Part shown: positions 9,750 through 57,636 of the stretch, piece by piece
Position numbering within the stretch: position 1 is the first letter of the stretch
Layout of the letters: every line of letters begins with the position of its first letter
Origin: a virus
Virus record (IMG/VR): IMGVR_UViG_3300023202_000205
Location: 115,365-179,364 of that record
DNA length: 64,000 nt
Reading direction: 5' to 3' (one strand)
Made by a program: the position numbers and the translations under genes
Notes under the pieces: model-generated
Seen by the model: the letters and a program-made list of their open reading frames with translations, nothing else
The model's database searches: none
What the model was told of the DNA's origin: nothing

Positions 9750-10124
9750 TCAGTTCAACTCAGCCTGCTCCTTCCGAGCCTCACTGGTCAACTGCCTCAG
9801 GCGATTTTCGAACCGCCTCTTGGCTTCCTGGTCGATCATCTCAACCAACTCCGTCTCCTGCATCTCCTCCTGACTGCAAACGAAAGCAGGCCCCACCAGC
9901 AAGCTGCCTACATGGCCAGAGAGAATAGCGGCGTAAGAGTTCAGGTCGAGATTCAGCAGTAGCCCCTCGTCGTCTACGTAGATGTCCCACCCACAGGCGG
10001 TGCCTTCAAGAATCGGAACTGCGCAGAAAAGCCCTGAAGGGAAAATCTGGTGTGTGTTGTTGAGTAGACGGTGGTGTTCCACGTGGAACATCACCTCTCC
10101 ATTCGGCTCTATGATGAGTGCCAT
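9750..10124 (-). CDS. DUF3846-like protein
   Basis: DIYVDDEGLL.NL..N..A......LVGPAFV. Confidence 0.55.
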   Translation of the reverse strand: MALIIEPNGEVMFHVEHHRLLNNTHQIFPSGLFCAVPILEGTACGWDIYVDDEGLLLNLDLNSYAAILSGHVGSLLVGPAFVCSQEEMQETELVEMIDQEAKRRFENRLRQLTSEARKEQAELN

Positions 10125-10164: not shown

Positions 10165-10302
10165 TTACGCGTCCTGCTCTCCTTCTTTTTCCTCTTGCTC
10201 TACAATCAGACGGTCCAACGCCTCGTTGAAACTCATCCCCTCGGTCCGCAACTGGTCGAGCCGCTTGGCCAACTCCCTATCGGCCCCTACCCTGCGCCAC
10301 AT
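10165..10302 (-). CDS. small ribbon-helix-helix/antitoxin-like DNA-binding protein
   Basis: 45 aa, RVGADRELAKRLDQLRTEGMSFNEALDRLI; GGAG RBS before ATG 10302. Confidence 0.5.
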   Translation of the reverse strand: MWRRVGADRELAKRLDQLRTEGMSFNEALDRLIVEQEEKEGEQDA

Positions 10303-10372
10303 ACCAATCCGCTCCGACCCGCTCCTGGCCCTCGGAGGTGGATCACCAAGGTCGTAACATATCTGGTAACCT

Positions 10373-10408
10373 GTCACAGATACCAAGCCGCTGAACGGGC
10401 ATAGCGAG
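10373..10408 (-). CRISPR. solitary CRISPR repeat (34/36 match to array repeat)
   Basis: gtcacagataccaagccgctgaacgggcatagcgag; no neighbouring repeat. Confidence 0.9.
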
Positions 10409-10516
10409 CCGGCGAGATGGGTAGCGACGGAATCAGCCGTATCAGAGCTCCTCACACCAACTAGGTTGTCCGTAGTCCCGCAGTTTTGGAGCCCCGAGCC
10501 CAAAAACGTAGTCCAG

Positions 10517-10990
10517 CTAACCCCAGTAGCGCTCGAAGCTAGCAAGCTTCCCGAACTTTGGCACTCCTGGCCCTCTCTGCTCTCCGTCTCCTCCTCCATT
10601 GTCTGCTCCTTCTGTGCGCGATTGGATCCACCGAGCATCTATATCCCAGTAGCGGTAAAACGCTGTGCCTCTCGTATGGCCTCGTAGGGGTTTCTCGAAT
10701 TCAGTCTGCCACAGGCAGAGCGACGAGACAATCCATCGAATGGCCTGCCGGACCTGCTTGTTGTCCACCCCTACGTAGTCTATAAGAGAAGGTATGGTAT
10801 GCGGTCCCTGCTGAAGGGCATGGTAGACCACTGGAAAGATCGCCTTGGTGACCAGATACACCCTATGGGTCGCTGGTCGCAGCCCATGTTCACGGATTCT
10901 CGTGAAAAGAGGATCCACGTAGGTCTCAATACGGTCGAGCACCTCCTGTAGCGCATCCTCTGCAAGTTGCTGGTCTGGGTCTGAGTCCAT
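10517..10990 (-). CDS. hypothetical protein, possible winged HTH
   Basis: GGAGG RBS before ATG 10990; TIPSLIDYVGVDNKQVRQAIRW...FYRYW. Confidence 0.5.
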   Translation of the reverse strand: MDSDPDQQLAEDALQEVLDRIETYVDPLFTRIREHGLRPATHRVYLVTKAIFPVVYHALQQGPHTIPSLIDYVGVDNKQVRQAIRWIVSSLCLWQTEFEKPLRGHTRGTAFYRYWDIDARWIQSRTEGADNGGGDGEQRGPGVPKFGKLASFERYWG

Positions 10991-11027
10991 GACTTGCGCC
11001 TCCCGAGCCCAATACTCGTTACTGCCA

Positions 11028-11666
11028 CTACCAATCAAGCTGTTCAAGCTGTTTAACGTAGCAATACTCCATACAGCTAGGCTCCCTATACTCCAGCGGA
11101 GCAGCTTGCTTCACCCGCGTTACAACGTTTATGAGCGACTTTCTCAGGGCAACACCTACGTGTTGCGATGCTATTGATTTTACAATACCCAACGGAAATA
11201 GGTCCATGCTGTGGTTGTCATAGCGGGGACGACAATTATCAACGAAGGGAACGAGGTTCTCAGGCATAGTCCGAAAAAGATCGATCCCGACATCAACGGC
11301 GAGCTGAGTACCAATCCAGCCCCACCCGGGCTCTAACTCCGAATCACTGGGCTGCTCCTCGTAGCCGTACTCCTTGACGATCTCGACCACTTTCTCGGCA
11401 ACCGCCTGAGCTGTGTGGGCTGACGCTTCAGAAGAAGGGATCCGCCGCCGATCGGTGACCAACCAACCGTTTATGGGGACGTCAGACAGCTGGATCTTAT
11501 ATCCTCGGAGAAAGCTGCCACAGCAATCGTCCGAGAAAAGCAGGTTACCCAACCTGCCGGGCTGGTCGGAAAAGAAGTCCTCCACAAAGACTGTGAAATC
11601 GAGATAGGGTAGGCTGATCGATAGATTTCGGACGATGATTCTGTCTTCTTGCGTGTTGGTCTCCAT
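11028..11666 (-). CDS. hypothetical protein
   Basis: 212-aa ORF in operon. Confidence 0.65.
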   Translation of the reverse strand: METNTQEDRIIVRNLSISLPYLDFTVFVEDFFSDQPGRLGNLLFSDDCCGSFLRGYKIQLSDVPINGWLVTDRRRIPSSEASAHTAQAVAEKVVEIVKEYGYEEQPSDSELEPGWGWIGTQLAVDVGIDLFRTMPENLVPFVDNCRPRYDNHSMDLFPLGIVKSIASQHVGVALRKSLINVVTRVKQAAPLEYREPSCMEYCYVKQLEQLDW

Positions 11667-11680
11667 CCGGATCTCCTCTG

Positions 11681-12424
11681 CTAGCTTTTGAGTGATTCGA
11701 GTATTTCCTGTGGTTCTGGGATCGACGAATACTCCTTGGGATACATTTTCGTGTCATAGGCCATAAGTAGCTGTCTGATCTCGTTCGACAAGGCTGCTGG
11801 AGTGTACCCGTGGGTGCCCCCTATGCCTACCTTGCCGAGGTGCCCGCGAGAACCTCTGAAACAGTGCACCGCCAAATACCCCGTCAGTCCTCCTGGGAAA
11901 ATAGACGCCTTTTTAAACAAGACGTGAATCGGGTCACGCATACAAACGTTCACAGAAGCAGCAATGCTACAATACGGATCAGCCAGTAATGCCCACCTGA
12001 GGTTGTTAAAGGGAATGTAGACCACCTCATTTAACCAAGGAACCCAAATGGGAAAGTCTTTCACTTTATCAAAATATACCTTACGTACACTGACTCCCCC
12101 AAGAAACGACAAGTTATTCCGGTCCGGGTGTAGGTACTTTCGGGAATAATCTCTTATAGCCTTCGCTGTAACACCCCTAAAAGGTATGGGTTGTGAGTTT
12201 CCCACGACCAAATCGAATAAGCGATCCCTTGAGGGAGTACCAACTAGCTCTCTGATATAGTCAACAAGGACGTCATTCAGGCCACACACGAGATCGTAAT
12301 AGGTGCTCTGGCTGGTAGATTCCGGAACCACCTCCCCTCGGGACCACGCTCTCCAAGCGTTAATGAACTCCATACCAGTACAGTAGTTGCGCGGTAGTGG
12401 CTGTTTACTGTCACTGCTCAGCAT
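11681..12424 (-). CDS. hypothetical protein, paralogue family member 3
   Basis: YCTGMEFINAWRAWSRGEVVP motif; AAGGAG RBS before ATG 12424. Confidence 0.7.
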   Translation of the reverse strand: MLSSDSKQPLPRNYCTGMEFINAWRAWSRGEVVPESTSQSTYYDLVCGLNDVLVDYIRELVGTPSRDRLFDLVVGNSQPIPFRGVTAKAIRDYSRKYLHPDRNNLSFLGGVSVRKVYFDKVKDFPIWVPWLNEVVYIPFNNLRWALLADPYCSIAASVNVCMRDPIHVLFKKASIFPGGLTGYLAVHCFRGSRGHLGKVGIGGTHGYTPAALSNEIRQLLMAYDTKMYPKEYSSIPEPQEILESLKS

Positions 12425-13130
12425 GGGGAATGAACTCCTTGGTAGAGGGAGTGGGGACTGGAGCGAAGTGCCTTCCCACACGGCTCCCCATTTCGTTCGG
12501 CCATGTCCTCCCAAAAACCGTGTCAAGCAACTCGATGGCAACACAGCGAGCTACTGGGTTGATCAGACTGTCCTCGAAACCAGGTGTTCTGACAAACGTG
12601 CGCCAGCGCTTGAGATGCTGGAACAAATGGATCGACTCGCCCAAGCTCAGGAACCACCCTCGAGATCTCAGGGATCCCGGAAACGGGTTACTTACAACAA
12701 GTACTGCATGCTTGACCACCTGTATACGGGTCCCGTCGAATACGAGCACCCCACAGGTGTTCCTAGTTTCTACACTAAATGAGCCTGCTAAACGCTTGAT
12801 CTGCTCTGGGACTTCCCCCTCAAGAAGGACCTCTATTTCCCCCATCAAGATGCTCACAGATAGTTTATCACGCACACTTCTTGTAAGACCGAACGGAGGC
12901 CTCCCTTCCCAACAAGATCCGAAAGAGTCTACCATGTCACGCCACTCGTAGTTCTTCGCTAGGAATTGACGAAAAAGACGGCAGCTCAGGTCATCGAGCC
13001 ACCTCATATCCCCCTCTCCAGGAATCCTCTCCGAGCTCGTAGGCGTAGGAACTGCCTTCCCCAAGGAATAGCAGCGCCACGCTCTTATGAATTCTGTAGG
13101 TGATGTGTAATCACTCTGTCGTGGTATCAT
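12411..13130 (-). CDS. hypothetical protein, paralogue family member 2
   Basis: YTSPTEFIRAWRCYSLGKAVP motif. Confidence 0.7.
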   Translation of the reverse strand: MIPRQSDYTSPTEFIRAWRCYSLGKAVPTPTSSERIPGEGDMRWLDDLSCRLFRQFLAKNYEWRDMVDSFGSCWEGRPPFGLTRSVRDKLSVSILMGEIEVLLEGEVPEQIKRLAGSFSVETRNTCGVLVFDGTRIQVVKHAVLVVSNPFPGSLRSRGWFLSLGESIHLFQHLKRWRTFVRTPGFEDSLINPVARCVAIELLDTVFGRTWPNEMGSRVGRHFAPVPTPSTKEFIPHAEQ

Positions 13131-13141
13131 GAGACCTCCTG

Positions 13142-14011
13142 CTACGTTTTGTAAAGCGCGCCCAGCTCAGATCCAAGCTCCCCTGGCCAGTAAGTCTCCC
13201 CGTAAATGCGATCCAAGATCTGTACAGCTAACCCACGAGCCACCCAGGTATCCGGGGTCACCCAGCCAGGGGTCTGGGTATCAATTTCTGAATCCGAATC
13301 CATAGCAAGCGTCAGTCTCTGAAGATAGAGAGGTAAGTTTACCCGTGCTAGTTCTATAAAGTAGCAGTCCGCGCAGTCACTACATCTCTCATGTGCTATC
13401 TCGAAGAAAGCAGCTCCATCAGGGAGGGGCGGCACCTCTACTACAGTTCTTATGGAAACCAACGGCATCGTTGGGCGACCCGCTACCCGTGACGTTAAAT
13501 TGAATAGCTGACATTTATCGTCGAATACCCTCACATGCCGGTCATCAAAAGAGACCTCTCTTATCGGAATACGGAAAGGGTAAGGGTCAAGCACGGGACA
13601 TTCACAGACGTCGTCTATCAGGGCGCGAATCTCCTCGTTGATATCCGGAGCGGTTGCTGAATTGTTAAGCAGGTCTTTGACTCTGCTGGTAAACCTGGCC
13701 TCAACAAACATCCGTTTATCGAGTGGTATTTCAACGATCTCCTCTATTCCCTCTCTGTGTATGAACCCCCCACCTGCGTACTCAACAGATTCTATGAATT
13801 CCTTTTCAAGGTTTGGTAGGAACTCATTTTCATAAAAGTGTCGAAAACGAGTAGGTGATTCGAAACGTAGGGGGGCGTGCATCTCCCTGTCATATTCCAT
13901 CACTGGCGGGAAAGTTGGCTGAGGGACTTCCTGACCAAGAGAGTATTTCCTCCAAGCACTGATGAACTCCATGGGAGTCTTGTAATGGGTTAGTTGTGGT
14001 TTTTCGGTCAT
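13142..14011 (-). CDS. hypothetical protein, paralogue family member 1
   Basis: YKTPMEFISAWRKYSLGQEVP motif. Confidence 0.7.
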   Translation of the reverse strand: MTEKPQLTHYKTPMEFISAWRKYSLGQEVPQPTFPPVMEYDREMHAPLRFESPTRFRHFYENEFLPNLEKEFIESVEYAGGGFIHREGIEEIVEIPLDKRMFVEARFTSRVKDLLNNSATAPDINEEIRALIDDVCECPVLDPYPFRIPIREVSFDDRHVRVFDDKCQLFNLTSRVAGRPTMPLVSIRTVVEVPPLPDGAAFFEIAHERCSDCADCYFIELARVNLPLYLQRLTLAMDSDSEIDTQTPGWVTPDTWVARGLAVQILDRIYGETYWPGELGSELGALYKT

Positions 14012-14048: not shown

Positions 14049-14109
14049 GTCGCAGATACCAAGCCTCTAATCGGGCATAGCGAGAGGGCTCTTATAACTC
14101 GGCCAAGGG
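14049..14109 (-). CRISPR. solitary CRISPR repeat (33/36, 14049..14084) with leader-proximal segment
   Basis: gtcgcagataccaagcctctaatcgggcatagcgag followed by agggctcttataactcggccaaggg (21/25 match to array-2 leader). Confidence 0.92.
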
Positions 14110-14112
14110 TTC

Positions 14113-14340
14113 CATCAGTCGCTCTATTAGAGCAGTAGAATAGCTCTACCAGGGGCTTCATCGGCTACTCTATTAAAGTAGTAATACGCCTTTACCAGGG
14201 GTCTCGTCAACTATCTTATTAAGGTAGTAAGACAAGCTCCAGGTGGTATGCCAGCCCCCTCTATTAGAGCAGTAAGACGGCTTTCCAGGAGTTACATCTG
14301 TTACTCTGCTAAAGTAATAGGATTACATCACCAGTATTAC
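14113..14340. repeat. five degenerate direct repeats, 45-46-bp period (iteron-like)
   Basis: core ctctattagagcagta at 14122, 14168, 14214, 14259, 14304, each followed by ccag. Confidence 0.8.
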
Positions 14341-14972: not shown

Positions 14973-14988
14973 GTGTTCGCGTGAACAC
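14973..14988. promoter_or_regulatory. palindromic operator GTGTTC-GCGT-GAACAC
   Basis: 25 nt upstream of start 14948. Confidence 0.7.
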
Positions 14989-19198: not shown

Positions 19199-19861
19199 TC
19201 AGGTGAGAACCCTTTTTTTGGAAATAGGATCAGATAATGGTATAAATTCATGAACCCGCCAAGGGTATTTTGTCCCAAACTCTGACTGGAACCACTGCTT
19301 CCAGCGGTCCACTGGATACCCAATATTTTGATTGAGAACACCATGATGGGTTTCCATGACGAAAGACATAGACGAACCTAATATGTCGATACACCGCGCG
19401 TCGTCGATAAGAACCCGCTCCCCACCTTCACAGTCGAGCTTCACTATAGTGCCTGATCCGACACTGGTCCCTGCGTCCGCAAGCAACTCAGGCAATGGAA
19501 GGCTCTCTATAGTCCCTTCCTCATCGTCAACCATGGCAACTGCACCAGACGTACGAATATTTTTGTTAGGGACTGCCCTCACTTGTTTTCCGGTACCGAG
19601 CGCTTTGTTAATGCAGGTAGTCTGAAACCCCCGTGTATTTTGGACTAGGCCGTTAAAGGTAGTCGGGTTCGGTTCGAAACAGAAGATCTCAGCATGAGGA
19701 AATAGACAGCGGGCGTAGATACTGAAAAGCCCATAGTTGGCACCGATATCGATAATGCGATCGACTGGGCGGTCGAAGAATTTTCGCAGTCGATAAAGAT
19801 CGGCCGTGATTATTTCTTGAAATATCAAAGGAAAGTATTTTTCGAAGTTATCGCAGATCAT
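19199..19861 (-). CDS. FkbM-family SAM-dependent methyltransferase
   Basis: IIDIGANYG, FCFEPNP, VKLDCEGGE. Confidence 0.88.
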   Translation of the reverse strand: MICDNFEKYFPLIFQEIITADLYRLRKFFDRPVDRIIDIGANYGLFSIYARCLFPHAEIFCFEPNPTTFNGLVQNTRGFQTTCINKALGTGKQVRAVPNKNIRTSGAVAMVDDEEGTIESLPLPELLADAGTSVGSGTIVKLDCEGGERVLIDDARCIDILGSSMSFVMETHHGVLNQNIGYPVDRWKQWFQSEFGTKYPWRVHEFIPLSDPISKKRVLT

Positions 19862-49689: not shown

Positions 49690-50273
49690 GCCACAAATAC
49701 CAAGCCTCTGAGCGGGCATAGCGAGAGTGCGCAGCTTCCCGCTTCTCCCCGATCACATCCGGGTCACAGATACCAAGCCTCTGAGCGGGCATAGCGAGAG
49801 GAGGTCTGGCCGGCTTTACCGCGAGATCGTGGTGACGTCACAGATACCAAGCCTCTGAGCGGGCATAGCGGGAGACGCCCTGCATGTTGCTCGTCACAGA
49901 TACCAAGCCTCTGAGCGGGCATAGCGAGTATCAGCGGTTCATAGGCTGATTCCCGTGATGGCGAGTCACAGATACCAAGCCTCTGAGCGGGCATAGCGAG
50001 CGGCGGTAACCTACGCTGGCGTCACAGATACCAAGCCTCTGAGCGGGCATAGCGAGAACAGGATACTGTAGACGACCTCTTTCGTCACCGCTCGGGTCAC
50101 AGATACCAAGCCTCTGAGCGGGCATAGCGAGAAACTGCGGCCGGTGCTGGCAAATGCCCATCCTGTGTCACAGATACCAAGCCTCTGAGCGGGCATAGCG
50201 AGTCCCACCACGCCCGGCAGACCGAGTGCACGCATGCGTCACAGATACCAAGCCTCTGAGCGGGCATAGCGAG
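49690..50273 (-). CRISPR. CRISPR array 1: 9 repeats, 8 spacers
   Basis: 36-bp repeat CTCGCTATGCCCGCTCAGAGGCTTGGTATCTGTGAC (minus) at 49690 (degenerate), 49763, 49837, 49893, 49965, 50021, 50096, 50167, 50238; spacers 37,38,20,36,20,39,35,35. Confidence 0.98.
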
Positions 50274-50445
50274 AGGGCCTTTATAATTCGGTTCATGGAA
50301 CCGTGTTATATCGCTATCCGCGAGAGCCCTCATCTCAGCTGATCCTAGCACCCTTTAGATCACTGCAATATCTCCACCTAAACCATTATCATCAAAGAAC
50401 ATCGAGTGCCTCCCGTAATTTCAGAACCAAGAAGGCGCTCGAAAC
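50274..50445 (-). promoter_or_regulatory. CRISPR leader 1 (172 bp)
   Basis: noncoding, abuts repeat, about 94 percent identical to 57465..57636. Confidence 0.9.
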
Positions 50446-50448
50446 TAC

Positions 50449-51090
50449 TCAGGAGGCCTTCCTACGCTTGGCGCTCTTCTTCTTCTTAACCGGCGGGATT
50501 GCTTTGGCAATCTCGCGCTGTAGCTGGCGTGCAACCTGGGGAGGTATCTCCCCTTTTGCGACGGCCTCTTTGATGACATCCACCACTATCGGCCACGGCA
50601 TCCAATAACCTCTGTACCGGATACCACGTTCTTTATCCGGTACGATAGCCGAGTAGACAGATCTCTTGGTGGCAGGTTTCTTTACCCGCTCCTCTGTGGA
50701 GTCGAGGTAGGTTCTCAGCTCCTCGAGACTGACGTCTGATAGACTCTTATCCTCGATAACGCGTGTTTCGAGGACCCTTTTTCGACGATCATTGTTCCTC
50801 GAGTTGATAAACACCCGCTGCTTCTCAGGGGGTAGGAGCAGCAAATGGGTGTCGAGGTCATGCTCCGCAATCTCGAGCAATGAGTCGAAGAAGTTCGAGT
50901 CACCCATCCCTTCCTGAATTAACCGTATTTTGAGCTTACGCCCAAACCGGTCATGGTACTTCTTGTATTTGTTAGCCAGCGAACGAAAGGCTAGTTTCCC
51001 GCTTTCGTAGCTAGCTAGCAACTCCCTGATAGCAGAGAGGAAGGAGGGGGAATCCCCTCCCCCGGCAACGGCCGTTTTCGTTTTGGGCAT
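50449..51090 (-). CDS. uncharacterised basic protein between cas12m and array 1 (candidate accessory)
   Basis: 213 aa, starts 10 nt after cas12m stop, AAGGAG RBS, ends 3 nt before leader. Confidence 0.75.
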   Translation of the reverse strand: MPKTKTAVAGGGDSPSFLSAIRELLASYESGKLAFRSLANKYKKYHDRFGRKLKIRLIQEGMGDSNFFDSLLEIAEHDLDTHLLLLPPEKQRVFINSRNNDRRKRVLETRVIEDKSLSDVSLEELRTYLDSTEERVKKPATKRSVYSAIVPDKERGIRYRGYWMPWPIVVDVIKEAVAKGEIPPQVARQLQREIAKAIPPVKKKKSAKRRKAS

Positions 51091-51100
51091 CTCATTCTCC

Positions 51101-52981
51101 TTAGGTGGTAACCTTTTCTGACTTCTTAGACTTCTTGGACTTCTTCGATTTCTTGGACTTCTTGGACTTCTTAGCCTTTTTAGCTTTCTTAGGCTCCTTC
51201 TTCTCTTCCGTACCGTTACTTTTCTTACTTTTTCGAACTTCCCCCTTGCTACGGGCAGCAGAGATGTCCACGCTATCCGTCAGCTGAGTACGGAGCATAA
51301 GTCTCAGCATTTTGCCAGTATTACGACGTTTGATAAACTCGTCAAAATCTTTCTGAGAGAGAAATCGTCGTAACAGGTTCAGCACACGGCTGTAATCCCC
51401 GCTCACCCCACAATCGCAGGGCCTCTCCTTAGTACAGTTGCCGCAGGTTTTTGCGATACCGCAAGGATTGACTTCTACGCAGGTCATAGCCTTTTTAAGT
51501 GTTTCCTCGAGATACGACACCGCCGCCAACCTCCTGTATTGGTCAGATGCCTCATCTCCGGGAGACTTACGCTCCTTGGTTCTGGAATCAGCATACCTGG
51601 CGAAGTCTGTCCAGTGGATATCGGGTATCACCACTGTGTCGTAAGTCCTCGACAACTTGGCCGCGAACTTGCGGTAGAGATCCAAGCGGTGCTCTTGAAT
51701 GTGTAACCGCTGGTTAGACGCATATTCCAGTAAGTGTTTGTCCTGAACCCTCCACTTCTCAGCTGTCACATACGCATGCTTGTCCCCTTTCCATCTGTTG
51801 TCCTTCCACTTCCAGATGACGGCTGCCAGCTGAGCTTCCGACCTCCAGTGGAAAATGGACTTCGTTGCTTCTTGGATCCACTCGGGGCCCTTGCGGAAGA
51901 ACTTGTCGAGTCGTTTACAGGTTTTATTGAACTCTTTGCGCCTGATGGATTGGAGATCTTCTTCATTATCTTTGAAGTTGATGTACTTATTCTCAAGTAG
52001 GAGATGCCCGAAATCACCATCTTCTCCAGCATAGGTTGCGACCCGTATACCGTCGTCCTGAACGGCCCACCCAGGCATTACAGCAACAACTCCGTGTCCT
52101 TTCTCCCGCTTTTCCAAAGCAGACCAGTCGTCGGTAGATAGGACCAGCTGAAGACTCCACTTCAGATTAGTACCCACCTTCTTTCCAACCAGTCGAGCAT
52201 ATTTGACCTGAGCACCGCGCGGGACGTCACGGTGAAGCTTGGTACGGAAGTTCAACCAAACGGGCTCTTTACCCACACTCCCGATCCGTATCCGGCTCAT
52301 ACGCCAACGGTCCCCACTGGTGGGGCACCTTTCGTCGTTTACTTGCAGGAGTCGGCTGATCCGCTTACCGCTACCATCGAAAGCGTCGTAGAAGTTACCC
52401 CCGTTCTGTACCTGTACGGTGATGCTGTCCTCACCGCGATAACGAACGAACTCGGGGGGAGCTCCCGATTTGTCATCTACGCGAGATTGTGAAATCGCGT
52501 TCTTGAGATGCCAGAACAGGCTGCTTTCGTTATAAAGAGCCTTACACTTTTGCCTGAACTCATCCTCGAGCTTACTCTGACACTTCTCCCATTTCTTGGT
52601 AGGGTAGCACTTCTTCTTTTTGAATTCACTGAGTTTCCTATACTTACCATTTCTGAGCTGTTTGGCTTTCTTGATCTGCTCCTTAAGGAGCTTGTCGATC
52701 TCACGCGTCCTCAGTTTGGCACGCTGCTTTCTGGAAAGATCGATGAGGCTATCAACCTCTTTTTCGGCTTCCTCAACGTCTTTTAAGAGGGGGATGATAG
52801 CTGGAAATAGTTGGCGAAGCTTGTCATGGATAGCCGTCCTCCGCTCTCTTTCGATAGCTACAAGACTATTCCTGTAATGGTTCATTTCTCGGAAGATAGC
52901 TATCGCTTCCTCCTCATCTTCTTTAAACAACTTAGCCCCGAATTTATAAACCTTCGAAGGCTTGCTATCTCGCCCAAACAT
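51101..52981 (-). CDS. cas12m: type V-M (V-U1) CRISPR effector Cas12m-like, RuvC-inactivated, Lys-rich C-terminal tail
   Basis: MFG....VYKFG start, RNSLVAIE, LFW, F.RYRG..SITVQ, RIRIGS....PVW...LHR.VP, W.S..QLA...WK, R.DLYR.FAA; RuvC-I VAVMPGW (D to M), RuvC-II VVIPD, RuvC-III GDY...NL; flanked by arrays. Confidence 0.88.
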   Translation of the reverse strand: MFGRDSKPSKVYKFGAKLFKEDEEEAIAIFREMNHYRNSLVAIERERRTAIHDKLRQLFPAIIPLLKDVEEAEKEVDSLIDLSRKQRAKLRTREIDKLLKEQIKKAKQLRNGKYRKLSEFKKKKCYPTKKWEKCQSKLEDEFRQKCKALYNESSLFWHLKNAISQSRVDDKSGAPPEFVRYRGEDSITVQVQNGGNFYDAFDGSGKRISRLLQVNDERCPTSGDRWRMSRIRIGSVGKEPVWLNFRTKLHRDVPRGAQVKYARLVGKKVGTNLKWSLQLVLSTDDWSALEKREKGHGVVAVMPGWAVQDDGIRVATYAGEDGDFGHLLLENKYINFKDNEEDLQSIRRKEFNKTCKRLDKFFRKGPEWIQEATKSIFHWRSEAQLAAVIWKWKDNRWKGDKHAYVTAEKWRVQDKHLLEYASNQRLHIQEHRLDLYRKFAAKLSRTYDTVVIPDIHWTDFARYADSRTKERKSPGDEASDQYRRLAAVSYLEETLKKAMTCVEVNPCGIAKTCGNCTKERPCDCGVSGDYSRVLNLLRRFLSQKDFDEFIKRRNTGKMLRLMLRTQLTDSVDISAARSKGEVRKSKKSNGTEEKKEPKKAKKAKKSKKSKKSKKSKKSKKSEKVTT

Positions 52982-53070: not shown

Positions 53071-53106
53071 GTCGCAGATACCAAGCCTCTGAGCGGGCAT
53101 AGCAAG
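53071..53106 (-). CRISPR. solitary CRISPR repeat (34/36) upstream of cas12m
   Basis: gtcgcagataccaagcctctgagcgggcatagcaag, 89 nt before cas12m ATG; partial copy gtcaacagatac at 53059..53070. Confidence 0.92.
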
Positions 53107-53120
53107 GCCACCTGGCCATC

Positions 53121-53153
53121 AAAATAGGGGACGCTGTACCTAACGTCCCCTAT
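53121..53153 (-). terminator. intrinsic terminator
   Basis: ataggggacg-(10 nt)-cgtcccctat stem with U tract on minus strand, after stop of 53173 ORF. Confidence 0.7.
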
Positions 53154-54808: not shown

Positions 54809-56611
54809 ATGGCGGTCGCGGCTCCTACGAAGCTGGAAGAGACACTCAAGGAAGTGCGAAACCGGGCCGTCAAAAATGGTGCTTCGCTTGCTCCAGCACT
54901 TCCCCTCATACTCCAACTGAGGGGGCAGCCCTACTCACTGAACTGGTCTCACTTCATGTTTGAGCCCATGTTCAAGTTTATAGGTATGCCTCGTCGAATG
55001 ATGTTGCTTTGTGGCCGCCAGGTCTCCAAAAGCACCTCGATGGCAGCTAGTCAGATACTCCGGGCAGCTATCCAGCCCAACTACAACATCCTTACCGTAA
55101 TGCCGCTTTACGAGCAGGTTCGCAAATTCAGCCAAAACTATGTGCGCCCTTTCATAACGACGAGTGGGGTAAGGAATCGTCTGGTCAGTGAACTGGGAAC
55201 GGACTCGGTCCTTCAACGGCAGATAGGGCCACTACAACACAACAGTTCCTTGTTCTACAGCTACAGTTCTGGCGACCCCAACCGTGTCCGTGGTATCCCT
55301 GCAGACGAAACCGACTTTGACGAGATCCAGGATTTGGACCACGCTGACCTCCCGATCATTGAATCGTGTATGGGTGCTTCGCGGTTCAAGATTGTTCGAC
55401 TAACGGGAACCCCTAAGACGTTTGACAACACGGCCAACCTGCTCTGGGAAGATAGCTCCCAGGCACATTGGCACATCCCCTGTTGTTGTGGCAAAGAGAA
55501 TAAAGCTGCCGTTGATGGTGATCTAATTCAGATGATCGGAGATGGTGGTAAACGACCGGATGGCTCTGTGCGTACACTGATCTGCGCTAACTGTGGCCGA
55601 GACCTCAATAGCCGCATTGGGTATTATGTCCACGACTACCCAGATCGCCGGTCGATCTTTCCCGGCTATCACGCCCCTCAGCCTATCCTCCCCATGCACT
55701 ATGAGTCGCCGCCGGACTGGCATGTCATCTTGGAAACGATGCATGAGAAGGCGACTTACATCTTCTACAACGAGGTCCTCGGAGAGTCCTATGATGCGGG
55801 CTCAAAGGTCATCACCTACGAGGAGCTGCATAAGGCAGCGCAGGTAACACCTTGTGAGCCGAAGGACATGCTGCCTTCTCGGTACATTGCTACTATGGTC
55901 GGGATCGACTGGGGTGGTCGTGGTAAGGAAAAGACGTCCGATACCGACGACTTTATCTCGAACACCGCCTTTGCCGTAGCAGGAATGCGGTCCGACGGTG
56001 TCATAGAGATACCCTGGCTTCACAAAGTACCCTATGTGGTAGATATGAGCCACGAGTCACATATGGCCGTCAACGTAGCTGCTAGCAGTAGGTCGGACTA
56101 CATCGCGATGGATTATGGCGGTCAGGGAAATGTGCAGGAACAGCAAGTGCGTGCCTGGGGATGGCCAGCGGAACGGGTGGTTCCGTTTACTTACGCGGTG
56201 ATGGCGCCAACACGCCCCGTAGTCTACTACAACCCTCCGAAACACCGTGGTGTCCGATCCAGTTATACACTGGATAAGCCCAGGAGTATCTTGCTCCTAG
56301 CAGAGCTCCTTAAGAGAGGGTTAGTGTTACTCCCCAACTCAGATAAATACCTGAAAGACCACCTGCGTGACTTCCTCAACATCTATGAAGAGAGTATCGA
56401 GAACCCCTCCGGCTCACCTCGTCGACTCATCAAACGGATGAGTCGACGCACTGACGACGTCGTCCACGCAATCAATTTTGCCGTAATGGGCCTCTTCCAT
56501 TACACAAATAGCTGGCCTAAGATCGCCGATTCATTTGTCGAGCAGGCCATCTCGCAGATACCTTCTTCTGTCACAGATACCAAGCCTTTGAGCGGGCATA
56601 GCGCGGGATGA
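54809..56611 (+). CDS. terL: terminase large subunit, GpA-like
   Basis: GRQVSKST Walker A, RVRGI.AD...FDEIQD, GTPKT, CCCG/CANC zinc module, FYNEVLGESY, GIDWG nuclease motif. Confidence 0.85.
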   Translation: MAVAAPTKLEETLKEVRNRAVKNGASLAPALPLILQLRGQPYSLNWSHFMFEPMFKFIGMPRRMMLLCGRQVSKSTSMAASQILRAAIQPNYNILTVMPLYEQVRKFSQNYVRPFITTSGVRNRLVSELGTDSVLQRQIGPLQHNSSLFYSYSSGDPNRVRGIPADETDFDEIQDLDHADLPIIESCMGASRFKIVRLTGTPKTFDNTANLLWEDSSQAHWHIPCCCGKENKAAVDGDLIQMIGDGGKRPDGSVRTLICANCGRDLNSRIGYYVHDYPDRRSIFPGYHAPQPILPMHYESPPDWHVILETMHEKATYIFYNEVLGESYDAGSKVITYEELHKAAQVTPCEPKDMLPSRYIATMVGIDWGGRGKEKTSDTDDFISNTAFAVAGMRSDGVIEIPWLHKVPYVVDMSHESHMAVNVAASSRSDYIAMDYGGQGNVQEQQVRAWGWPAERVVPFTYAVMAPTRPVVYYNPPKHRGVRSSYTLDKPRSILLLAELLKRGLVLLPNSDKYLKDHLRDFLNIYEESIENPSGSPRRLIKRMSRRTDDVVHAINFAVMGLFHYTNSWPKIADSFVEQAISQIPSSVTDTKPLSGHSAG

Positions 56612-57464
56612 TGACGGCCCCTCAGTCACAGATACCAAGCCTCTGAGCGGGCATAGCGAGGCGGCCATGACCCCGAGGAACAGCCGTGGCCCTCCGAGTC
56701 ACAGATACCAAGCCTCTGAGCGGGCATAGCGAGCCGATTGCGATGGGGTGGACCCGGTCTCTTTCGAGTTGTCACAGATACCAAGCCTCTGAGCGGGCAT
56801 AGCGGGGGCCTTGCTACCGGGTTTCCCTTCAGACTACCCTTCGGTCACAGATACCAAGCCTCTGAGCGGGCATAGCGAGACCATAGCCACCTCGGCAAGG
56901 CCCTGGATACCGCCGCGTCACAGATACCAAGCCTCTGAGCGGGCATAGCGAGCGCTTTTGGATCGCCTGGCGTACGCCCTGCTTCTGGTCACAGATACCA
57001 AGCCTCTGAGCGGGCATAGCGAGGGCGCTCTCACACAGCGAGGAGCAGAGCCATGGCCACACTGTCACAGATACCAAGCCTCTGAGCGGGCATAGCGAGT
57101 GCCATCGAATCCCCGGTAGCGGACACCGTTCACTTGCGTCACAGATACCAAGCCTCTGAGCGGGCATAGCGAGACAACTGTTGGCGGCGAGCACGACCGG
57201 ATGCCCAGGGTCACAGATACCAAGCCTCTGAGCGGGCATAGCGGGAGCTCGGCCGCCTCGGATTGGGTCAGTAGATGATCATGTCACAGATACCAAGCCT
57301 CTGAGCGGGCATAGCGAGTTCTCGTCGTCGGTACGCTCGCCACGGAGCGCCGCCGTCACAGATACCAAGCCTCTGAGCGGGCATAGCGAGTGCGACACCT
57401 TTCGCGGCACCGTGGCCAGCGAGATCTAGTCACAGATACCAAGCCTCTGAGCGGGCATAGCGAG
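56570..57464 (-). CRISPR. CRISPR array 2: 13 repeats, 12 spacers
   Basis: repeats at 56570 (degenerate), 56625, 56698, 56771, 56844, 56917, 56988, 57064, 57138, 57210, 57283, 57355, 57429; spacers 19,37,37,37,37,35,40,38,36,37,36,38. Confidence 0.98.
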
Positions 57465-57636
57465 AGGGCCTTTATAACTCGGCTCAGGGAACCGTGTTAT
57501 ATCGCTCTCTGCGAGCGCCCTCATCTCAGCTGATCCTAGCACCTCTTAGATCACTGCAATATCTCCATCTAAACCATTATCAGCAAAGAACATCGAGCGC
57601 CTCCCGTAATTTCAGAACCAAGAAGGCGCTCGAAAC
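57465..57636 (-). promoter_or_regulatory. CRISPR leader 2 (172 bp)
   Basis: 11 mismatches to leader 1 by manual alignment. Confidence 0.9.

Follow-up and report, generated by a model that had tools for sequence, protein, structure and literature searches.

Solitary repeat units (SRUs), single intergenic repeat-like sequences that lie outside arrays and are followed by sequence with no recognizable target, have been reported from type V-A loci, where they neighbor cas12a, and from viral genomes, with function unknown (Shmakov et al. 2023, bioRxiv 10.1101/2023.03.03.530964, where the V-A units are cited from Faure et al. 2019). Some solitary repeats act as anti-CRISPR decoys, and others accompany cas12a for reasons unexplained; none is known as a part of a virus's own mRNAs that is served by the virus's own effector. 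A further group of regulatory CRISPR-like RNAs includes tracr-L, scaRNA, the CreA/CreR mini-arrays, and phage crlRNAs (bioRxiv 10.1101/2023.03.03.530964; 10.1101/2024.10.29.618823). The element considered here is, by definition, a solitary repeat unit, and it belongs to the phage's own type V-M CRISPR system. It shares with the V-A and viral SRUs the intergenic position outside arrays and the neighboring sequence that matches nothing recognizable; in addition, a sister unit, placed 89 nt ahead of cas12m, parallels the arrangement in the V-A loci. The differences are considerable. Where the V-A units are weakly repeat-like and sit in the cas locus, this one is 94% identical to the array repeat, lies 41 kb from cas12m and outside the cas locus, and is found among ordinary phage genes as one of six such units spread over 132 kb.

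The record is a 179,364-bp virus genome, estimated to be 96% complete; the window, by which we mean the whole 64-kb stretch of DNA that was analyzed, corresponds to its bases 115365-179364. Positions below are those of the window unless marked as genome positions. From upstream to downstream on the minus strand, the locus comprises:

10517..11047, minus strand: upstream ORF of 176 aa, with its stop 108 nt before the SRU
10373..10408, minus strand: SRU, 34/36 of the phage V-M CRISPR repeat in crRNA sense, with C14U and A19C
10353..10372, minus strand: guide-like 20 nt directly 3′ of the SRU, AGGTTACCAGATATGTTACG
10298..10313, minus strand: possible relic of a second repeat (3′ half), overlapping the RBS and ATG of the small ORF, with an implied spacer of 43 nt
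10165..10302, minus strand: small RHH/VapB-like ORF of 45 aa, with GGAG about 10 nt before its ATG; the same ORF is called by the gene caller on the source contig
9750..10124, minus strand: DUF3846-like ORF of 124 aa, the next gene downstream of the 45-aa ORF

The preliminary description of this locus had given a 34/36 match to the 36-nt array repeat, and this stands: there are 2 mismatches, and shuffled sequences lead one to expect 0.00 such matches. The substitutions do fall at minus-strand positions 14 and 19 (C14 to T and A19 to C in crRNA sense), and the distance of 70 nt to the small ORF is exact, positions 10303-10372 lying between the repeat and the ATG at 10302. The unit had also been said to lack a leader, and the 160 nt upstream of it indeed score no higher than the null mean against the 150-nt leader of the three arrays. 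The claim that the nearest array is 39 kb away is correct inside the window but not in the genome, where the distance shrinks to 20.8 kb because of a third array on the other side of the unit (genome 104661-104981). Closer still is another solitary repeat at 14049, the nearest full repeat copy, 3.6 kb off. At spacer distance the sole neighbor is the borderline 16-nt relic 43 nt downstream, and the unit counts as solitary. This stretch matches repeat positions 17-32 at 13/16 positions, or at 14/16 when the local variant is used, a score that reaches only the 95th percentile of random windows; from its sequence, it may be what is left of a second repeat.

Genome-wide there are 33 copies of the repeat, and all 33 lie on the strand that also carries cas12m; no copy is found on the other strand, and none in the genome is of intermediate decay (20-27 of 31 core positions). 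Six copies are solitary and co-oriented, and each precedes an ORF start by 14-89 nt (14, 37, 54, 69, 70, and 89 nt). The 5 besides the unit at 10373 are:

genome 36523: truncated SRU, 14 nt before a 274-aa ORF, with a terminator-like hairpin abutting it
genome 105721: SRU 69 nt before an HTH_17 gene (Pfam E 2.8e-10), keeping 76 nt of array leader
genome 111419: SRU, solitary copy
14049..14084, minus strand: SRU, 33/36, keeping 18 nt of leader, 37 nt before a 289-aa ORF
53071..53106, minus strand: SRU, 34/36, 89 nt upstream of cas12m

It seems that leader and repeat were copied together as promoter cassettes, and the SRU most likely arose by the spread and collapse of mini-arrays in this phage genome. 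The units at 14049 and 10373 belong to the same putative transcription unit, the body of which consists of three adjacent paralogous ORFs at 11681-14011 (289, 239, and 287 aa) that share an N-terminal …EFI.AWR… motif and match no family. Some side observations on the sister units may be recorded here. Just upstream of the unit at 14049, a segment of ~60 nt is repeated in tandem four or five times at 14085-14330, each time with a CTATTAGAG…TAGTA-type motif. A terminator-like hairpin at 53107-53150 (7-bp G+C stem, 10-nt loop, then TATTTT) ends 9 nt before the unit at 53071, and a part of that unit's 3′ end recurs behind it (GTATCTGTTGAC).

The cognate system is made up of the following parts:

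51101..52981, minus strand: cas12m, 626 aa, with Met302 in place of the RuvC-I Asp and Pro in place of the RuvC-II Glu
49690..50273, minus strand: CRISPR array 1, 9 repeats, with the leader at the high-coordinate end and a degenerate last repeat at 49690
56570..57464, minus strand: CRISPR array 2, 13 repeats, with the same 150-nt leader
genome 104661-104981, beyond the window: CRISPR array 3
50274-50430 and 57465-57620, and genome 104982-105130 and 105757-105832: leader sequences

The 626-aa protein matches the solved Cas12m structure PDB 23vw_A (E 2.3e-40). Its family comprises 2,745 cluster representatives, and its nearest Cas12m relatives are just 40% identical. Alignments put Met302 at the RuvC-I Asp/His position and a proline at the RuvC-II Glu/Asp position; with these residues the nuclease site is dead, and the product of 51101-52981 is accordingly a Cas12m with an inactive RuvC. 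No Cas1 or Cas2 gene is encoded by the phage. Its arrays hold 27 real spacers, each of the three ends in a degenerate terminal repeat, and all have a nearly identical 150-nt leader that ends …TTATAAAGGCCCT. When both in-window arrays were searched against GenBank phages, and two spacers against IMG/VR, no protospacer match was found. Among spacers of 35-40 nt there are short ones of 19-20 nt (49873-49892, 50001-50020, and 56606-56624), close to the ~17-bp heteroduplex used by Cas12m2. One spacer of array 2 (57319-57354) is a 36/36 match to the phage's own genome at 19251-19286 (L006:652-687), on the sense strand of a 218-aa ORF directly after a sigma-70-like gene, at about codons 22-33 and with the 5′ flank GTTGGC; with a dead Cas12m this could amount to self-repression, or the spacer could be directed against close relatives. 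In this phage, as in its two nearest relatives, cas12m is immediately followed by a gene of ~190-213 aa (50449-51090; L001:1826-2443; L002:11818-12390). These genes are weakly similar (23% identity, E 0.008) and match no family, and they are a possible accessory of the phage Cas12m.

The minus-strand repeat, CTCGCTATGCCCGCTCAGAGGCTTGGTATCTGTGAC, resembles the experimentally used crRNA handles of eight Cas12m enzymes, such as those of Tf (GUUGCAAUGCCUAGCUCAGAGGUUUAAAGACUGAGAC) and Ms (Bigelyte et al. 2024, Table S5), and also the repeats of relatives (L002, L007, L008, and Virus Rctr197k), which lie downstream of their cas12m and co-oriented with it. The folding energy of the minus-strand form is -10 kcal/mol, as against -5 kcal/mol for the plus-strand form; the arrays' degenerate last repeats and common 150-nt leader likewise fit minus-strand transcription. 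Given the likeness to known handles, the co-oriented repeats of the relatives, and the last repeats and leader, the minus strand is the right strand, as had been assumed from the outset; fold and covariation agree. In the Cas12m2 structure, the handle combines a stem with a pseudoknot, and its 5′ end is disordered (PMC10442227); it was this scheme that we transferred to an alignment of 15 repeats. Over these 15 repeats, 89% of the cells of the model are paired (24-48% in slid controls), and a compensatory change is seen at 6 of its 8 pairs; the observed values were reached by 0 of 500 shuffles. Natural covariation is also seen within a single array of a relative (L007:3385-3838), where repeats differ by paired changes, GCAGG/CCTGC versus GCGGG/CCCGC, which supports the Cas12m pseudoknot.

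The copy at 10373 keeps all 8 model pairs. With C14U the first pseudoknot pair becomes G·U, A19C is unpaired and outside the conserved pairs, and the canonical stem (G9-C22, C10-G21, C11-G20) is intact. The CCG-TTCAG-CGG stem that the two substitutions had been proposed to create can be drawn, but it is a one-base register shift of the canonical stem and is not needed. The variant folds less well than the consensus (-7.9 versus -10.0 kcal/mol, with a diffuse ensemble), and the SRU taken together with the 5′ UTR (118 nt) gives no sign of a switch-like structure (fold z-score 0.0). Judged by the modeled pairs, the copy should still be recognized as a handle. By our own estimate, the surplus of substitutions at the dispensable 5′ end loses significance if the truncated copy is taken as one event.

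Next to the repeat, the 45-aa ORF has a strand-helix-turn-helix pattern (…RRVGA…ELAKRLDQLRTEGMSFNEALDRL…). The label “RHH-like” given to it earlier rests on a sub-threshold likeness to small RHH/VapB-type DNA binders: its Pfam hits, to DUF7557 (E 1.3e-4, 21.8 bits, cut-off 25) and to VAPB_antitox (PF02697; E 3.9e-4, 21.6 bits, cut-off 27.9), both fall short of the cut-off; a language-model search for look-alikes arrives at the same families with a score of 0.89, which is a lead rather than proof. Homologue searches recovered the protein itself alone, with nothing from PHROGs or NCBIfam. For the suggestion that it might be an antitoxin, there is no toxin partner: the downstream gene is a DUF3846 gene with nothing in PHROGs and no membership of the PIN or any other known toxin family. 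A 157-aa ORF at 10165-10638, which would put the repeat inside coding sequence, was considered and rejected, since it overlaps the 176-aa ORF, its N-terminal part is unsupported, and the source calls the 45-aa ORF.

Between the 176-aa ORF and the SRU, neither a sigma-70-like promoter nor a terminator-like site was found (the phage promoter type may differ), and sigma-70 promoter and terminator scans around the SRUs gave nothing above chance. Crude gene calling assigns 91% of the genome to coding sequence and puts 157 of 189 genes on the minus strand. With no promoter or terminator signal in a genome that codes mostly on this strand, read-through transcription of the repeat at 10373 is likely. 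Two features of the surrounding DNA deserve mention on their own account. Between the 176-aa ORF and the SRU, at 10471-10517, an 8-11-nt direct repeat (GGACTACG core) surrounds a 25-nt hairpin, and this could be a small inserted element. More widely, a recurrent palindrome, TGTTCRCGYGAACA, occurs in ~22 copies genome-wide, mostly intergenic and often extended to ATAG…CTAT or AAAG…CTTT; its copies in the window include those at 557, 9605, 14974, 24268, 32982, 42231, and 53501, and the SRUs at 10373 and 14049 fall between those at 14974 and 9605. The palindrome could be a phage operator, promoter, or terminator hairpin placed at the borders of transcription units.

In the reading that we favor, with a probability of about 40%, the repeat becomes part of an operon mRNA in which Cas12m binds or cuts it; this would link Cas12m to expression of the RHH-like gene post-transcriptionally. 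Cas12m enzymes process pre-crRNA unaided, cutting within the repeat and remaining attached to the handle afterwards (PMC11013384, PMC10442227). The SRU stands in sense orientation in a putative minus-strand operon, between the 176-aa gene and the 45-aa RHH-like gene, and a polycistronic mRNA would carry it by way of read-through transcription. In that mRNA the repeat would fold into the Cas12m handle, stem plus pseudoknot, and the RuvC-dead phage Cas12m would presumably bind it and cut just 5′ of the handle, as with pre-crRNA. Such a cut would split the transcript, and the segment encoding the RHH-like and DUF3846 proteins would either acquire a Cas12m-bound 5′ end or be trimmed to a target-less guide RNA. 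RHH expression and the free pool of Cas12m might in this way become mutually dependent after transcription. If an intact handle is present in operon RNA together with Cas12m, binding and cleavage would be the expected biochemical outcome. The points that speak for this are the 34/36 match, the strand, the intact fold, the cognate dead Cas12m, the lack of any promoter or terminator signal, the one-strand pattern of the copies with none of intermediate decay, and the 5 sister SRUs in like positions; the leader upstream of the unit is gone, while the repeat is 94% intact.

A link between Cas12m and a regulator had already been put forward in the preliminary description, and it is made plausible by the cognate Cas12m and by six co-oriented SRUs, one each before cas12m, the HTH_17 gene, and the RHH-like gene. 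Against it are the lack of a guide target, the lack of conservation in relatives, and a pre-gene position that is expected for any intergenic insertion: in a genome that is 91% coding and mostly on one strand, any insertion that is tolerated between genes would come to sit just upstream of one. Moreover, distances to the start codon that range from 14 to 89 nt are too varied to suggest a single uniform or simple mechanism, at the unit at 10373 the RBS of the 45-aa ORF lies beyond the ~17-20 nt held by Cas12m, and the terminator-like hairpins directly upstream of two sister SRUs argue against strong read-through into those two. An extended form of the proposal would have the dead Cas12m turned into a regulator of the phage's own genes, with an RNA-level regulon of repeats in the 5′ regions of at least six transcription units, among them those of cas12m, the HTH_17 gene, and the RHH-like gene, and with two of the units driven by copied leaders serving as promoter cassettes. 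Taken as a whole we regard this as unlikely; in it, the self-matching array spacer would possibly be the complement at the DNA level.

Dispersed repeats were not found in the Cas12m-bearing relatives L002 (17 kb) and L007 (13 kb) or in the whole 197-kb Virus Rctr197k, where the arrays adjoin cas12m; dispersed repeats thus appear to be a peculiarity of this phage. Searches of IMG/VR by way of the Cas12m, DUF3846, and DNA polymerase proteins gave no relatives, and the repeat core was found in no other genome of IMG/VR, the JGI metagenome contigs, or the species genomes. L002 carries a DUF3846 gene with no RHH neighbor. Since the RHH gene and the repeat are without counterparts elsewhere, conservation is no usable evidence, and three DNA runs of one study, which contain the same strain with no differences, are uninformative in this respect. 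L002 is instructive in another way: the degenerate last repeat of its two-repeat array ends 12 nt before the ATG of the next gene, which shows how the end of an array can come to abut a gene start.

Nearly as likely as processing of the operon mRNA is that the unit is a neutral relic, left over when recombination between repeats and deletion removed the rest of a mini-array or of an array's trailing end, and that it has no role of its own. Its similarity to the arrays would then have been kept by recent origin or gene conversion, and Cas12m may bind it to no purpose. Two substitutions are just what each of the three arrays has in its degenerate terminal repeat; array trailing ends and other SRUs are trailed by partial repeat 3′ ends, and the borderline second-repeat remnant 43 nt downstream of the unit at 10373 would fit the same picture. 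Leader-repeat units have clearly multiplied in this genome, as seen in three arrays with one leader and two SRUs with leader pieces, and dispersed SRUs occur in no relative. The intergenic position is the default expectation. What is awkward for a relic is that a leader-sized flank has become fully unrecognizable next to 36 nt that are 94% intact, that half-decayed copies are nowhere in the genome, that six of six SRUs are co-oriented with transcription, and that the substitutions have spared the handle fold. Even if it proved to be a relic only, the locus would still document the multiplication and decay of leader-repeat units in a phage system that lacks Cas1 and Cas2.

Other roles can be imagined for an intact handle. 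The repeat and the next 17-20 nt could yield a crRNA-like RNA that would act in the way of scaRNA, tracr-L, CreA, or phage crlRNAs, guiding the dead Cas12m so as to silence a site with a partial match in the host or a rival phage, and in this connection Cas12m2 requires only a ~17-bp heteroduplex (PMC10442227), spacers of 19-20 nt are present in the phage's own arrays, and regulatory CRISPR-like RNAs with partial matches are widespread (bioRxiv 10.1101/2023.03.03.530964). The guide-like sequence reported earlier is indeed the reverse complement of 10353-10372, and the statement that it has no target in the window extends to the whole 179-kb genome at thresholds of at least 15/18, at least 70%, at least 12/14, or at least 16/20. 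For all six pseudo-guides, matches elsewhere in the phage genome are at chance level, and the exact 20-mer is absent from 185,579 species genomes, the JGI metagenome contigs, and IMG/VR; we consider a trans-acting guide improbable. A decoy is a shade harder still to credit. In that case the units would be Racr-like sponges for a Cas12m, buffering the phage's own or blocking a host or rival V-M system with the same repeat, much as viral solitary repeat units inhibit cognate effectors through dead-end complexes (PMC10651486, PMC11656645); the six copies would be additive, and one of them precedes cas12m itself. Racrs, however, are typically short RNAs with a strong promoter of their own, carried by elements without cas genes (PMC10651486), whereas no sigma-70-like promoter signal is seen at the SRU, the phage itself supplies the cognate cas12m as well as 27 real spacers, and the repeat turned up in no other genome among the species genomes, JGI metagenome contigs, and IMG/VR. 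Least probable of all is a role at the DNA level, either as a recombination site or as an operator for the adjacent RHH protein, which would then recognize every array repeat too. Regulators of the small RHH and HTH kinds do usually bind beside their own genes, and two SRUs lie ~70 nt before such genes. However, positions 10280-10530 contain no dyad, inverted-repeat, or tandem sub-site pattern of the kind expected for an RHH operator; the recurrent palindrome, of 14-22 bp, is a better operator candidate and is absent at this SRU; and the strict strand bias of the 33 copies points to a role at the RNA level.

How, then, does the locus stand beside the systems that it most resembles? With the Racrs (Camara-Wilpert et al. 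2023, PMC10651486) it has in common that a virus carries a solitary repeat which imitates the handle of a crRNA and to which the effector would bind. Racrs mimic the repeat of the host, have their own promoter, and come from elements with no cognate cas gene; the present phage owns both effector and arrays, and no sigma-70-like promoter was detected. The SRU at 10373 thus departs from the Racrs in that the cognate effector is phage-encoded, and it shows no sign of a promoter of that type. The regulatory CRISPR-like RNAs offer a degenerate repeat with a pseudo-spacer and an effector that is reprogrammed to a repressor, which Cas12m is naturally, but theirs is a partial, PAM-flanked promoter match, usually in the same locus, and there is none in this phage genome. 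With no target found in the phage genome or, as an exact match, in the three collections searched, and with a position outside the cas locus, the unit fails the defining features of these regulatory mini-arrays as well.

Two further comparisons can be made. The delocalized or atypical crRNAs of the CRISPR-associated transposons (types V-K and I-F3) stem from a lone, diverged repeat far from the array that loads a fixed guide, in the I-F3 case under a small transcription factor, and these guides have a clear chromosomal homing target; for the unit at 10373 no target was found, and no transposon is involved. Engineered Csy4/Cas6 or Cas12a repeats placed in mRNAs are cut and so insulate cistrons, and although these are synthetic designs, the likeness is direct: a repeat between cistrons makes the effector RNase a step in mRNA processing, as proposed here. 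We know of no natural Cas12m example of repeat-based cistron processing, and in the literature searched we found no published account of near-perfect repeats among a phage's ordinary genes together with its own dead Cas12m. If Cas12m does cut or cap these transcripts, this would be a natural CRISPR protein in the post-transcriptional control of ordinary genes, the processing would explain why the phage keeps a nuclease-dead effector, and the repeat plus Cas12m would constitute a compact natural design for operon processing. In any case, what is new relative to the described systems is the setting, with near-perfect repeats in sense orientation among ordinary phage genes and a dead Cas12m that is the phage's own.
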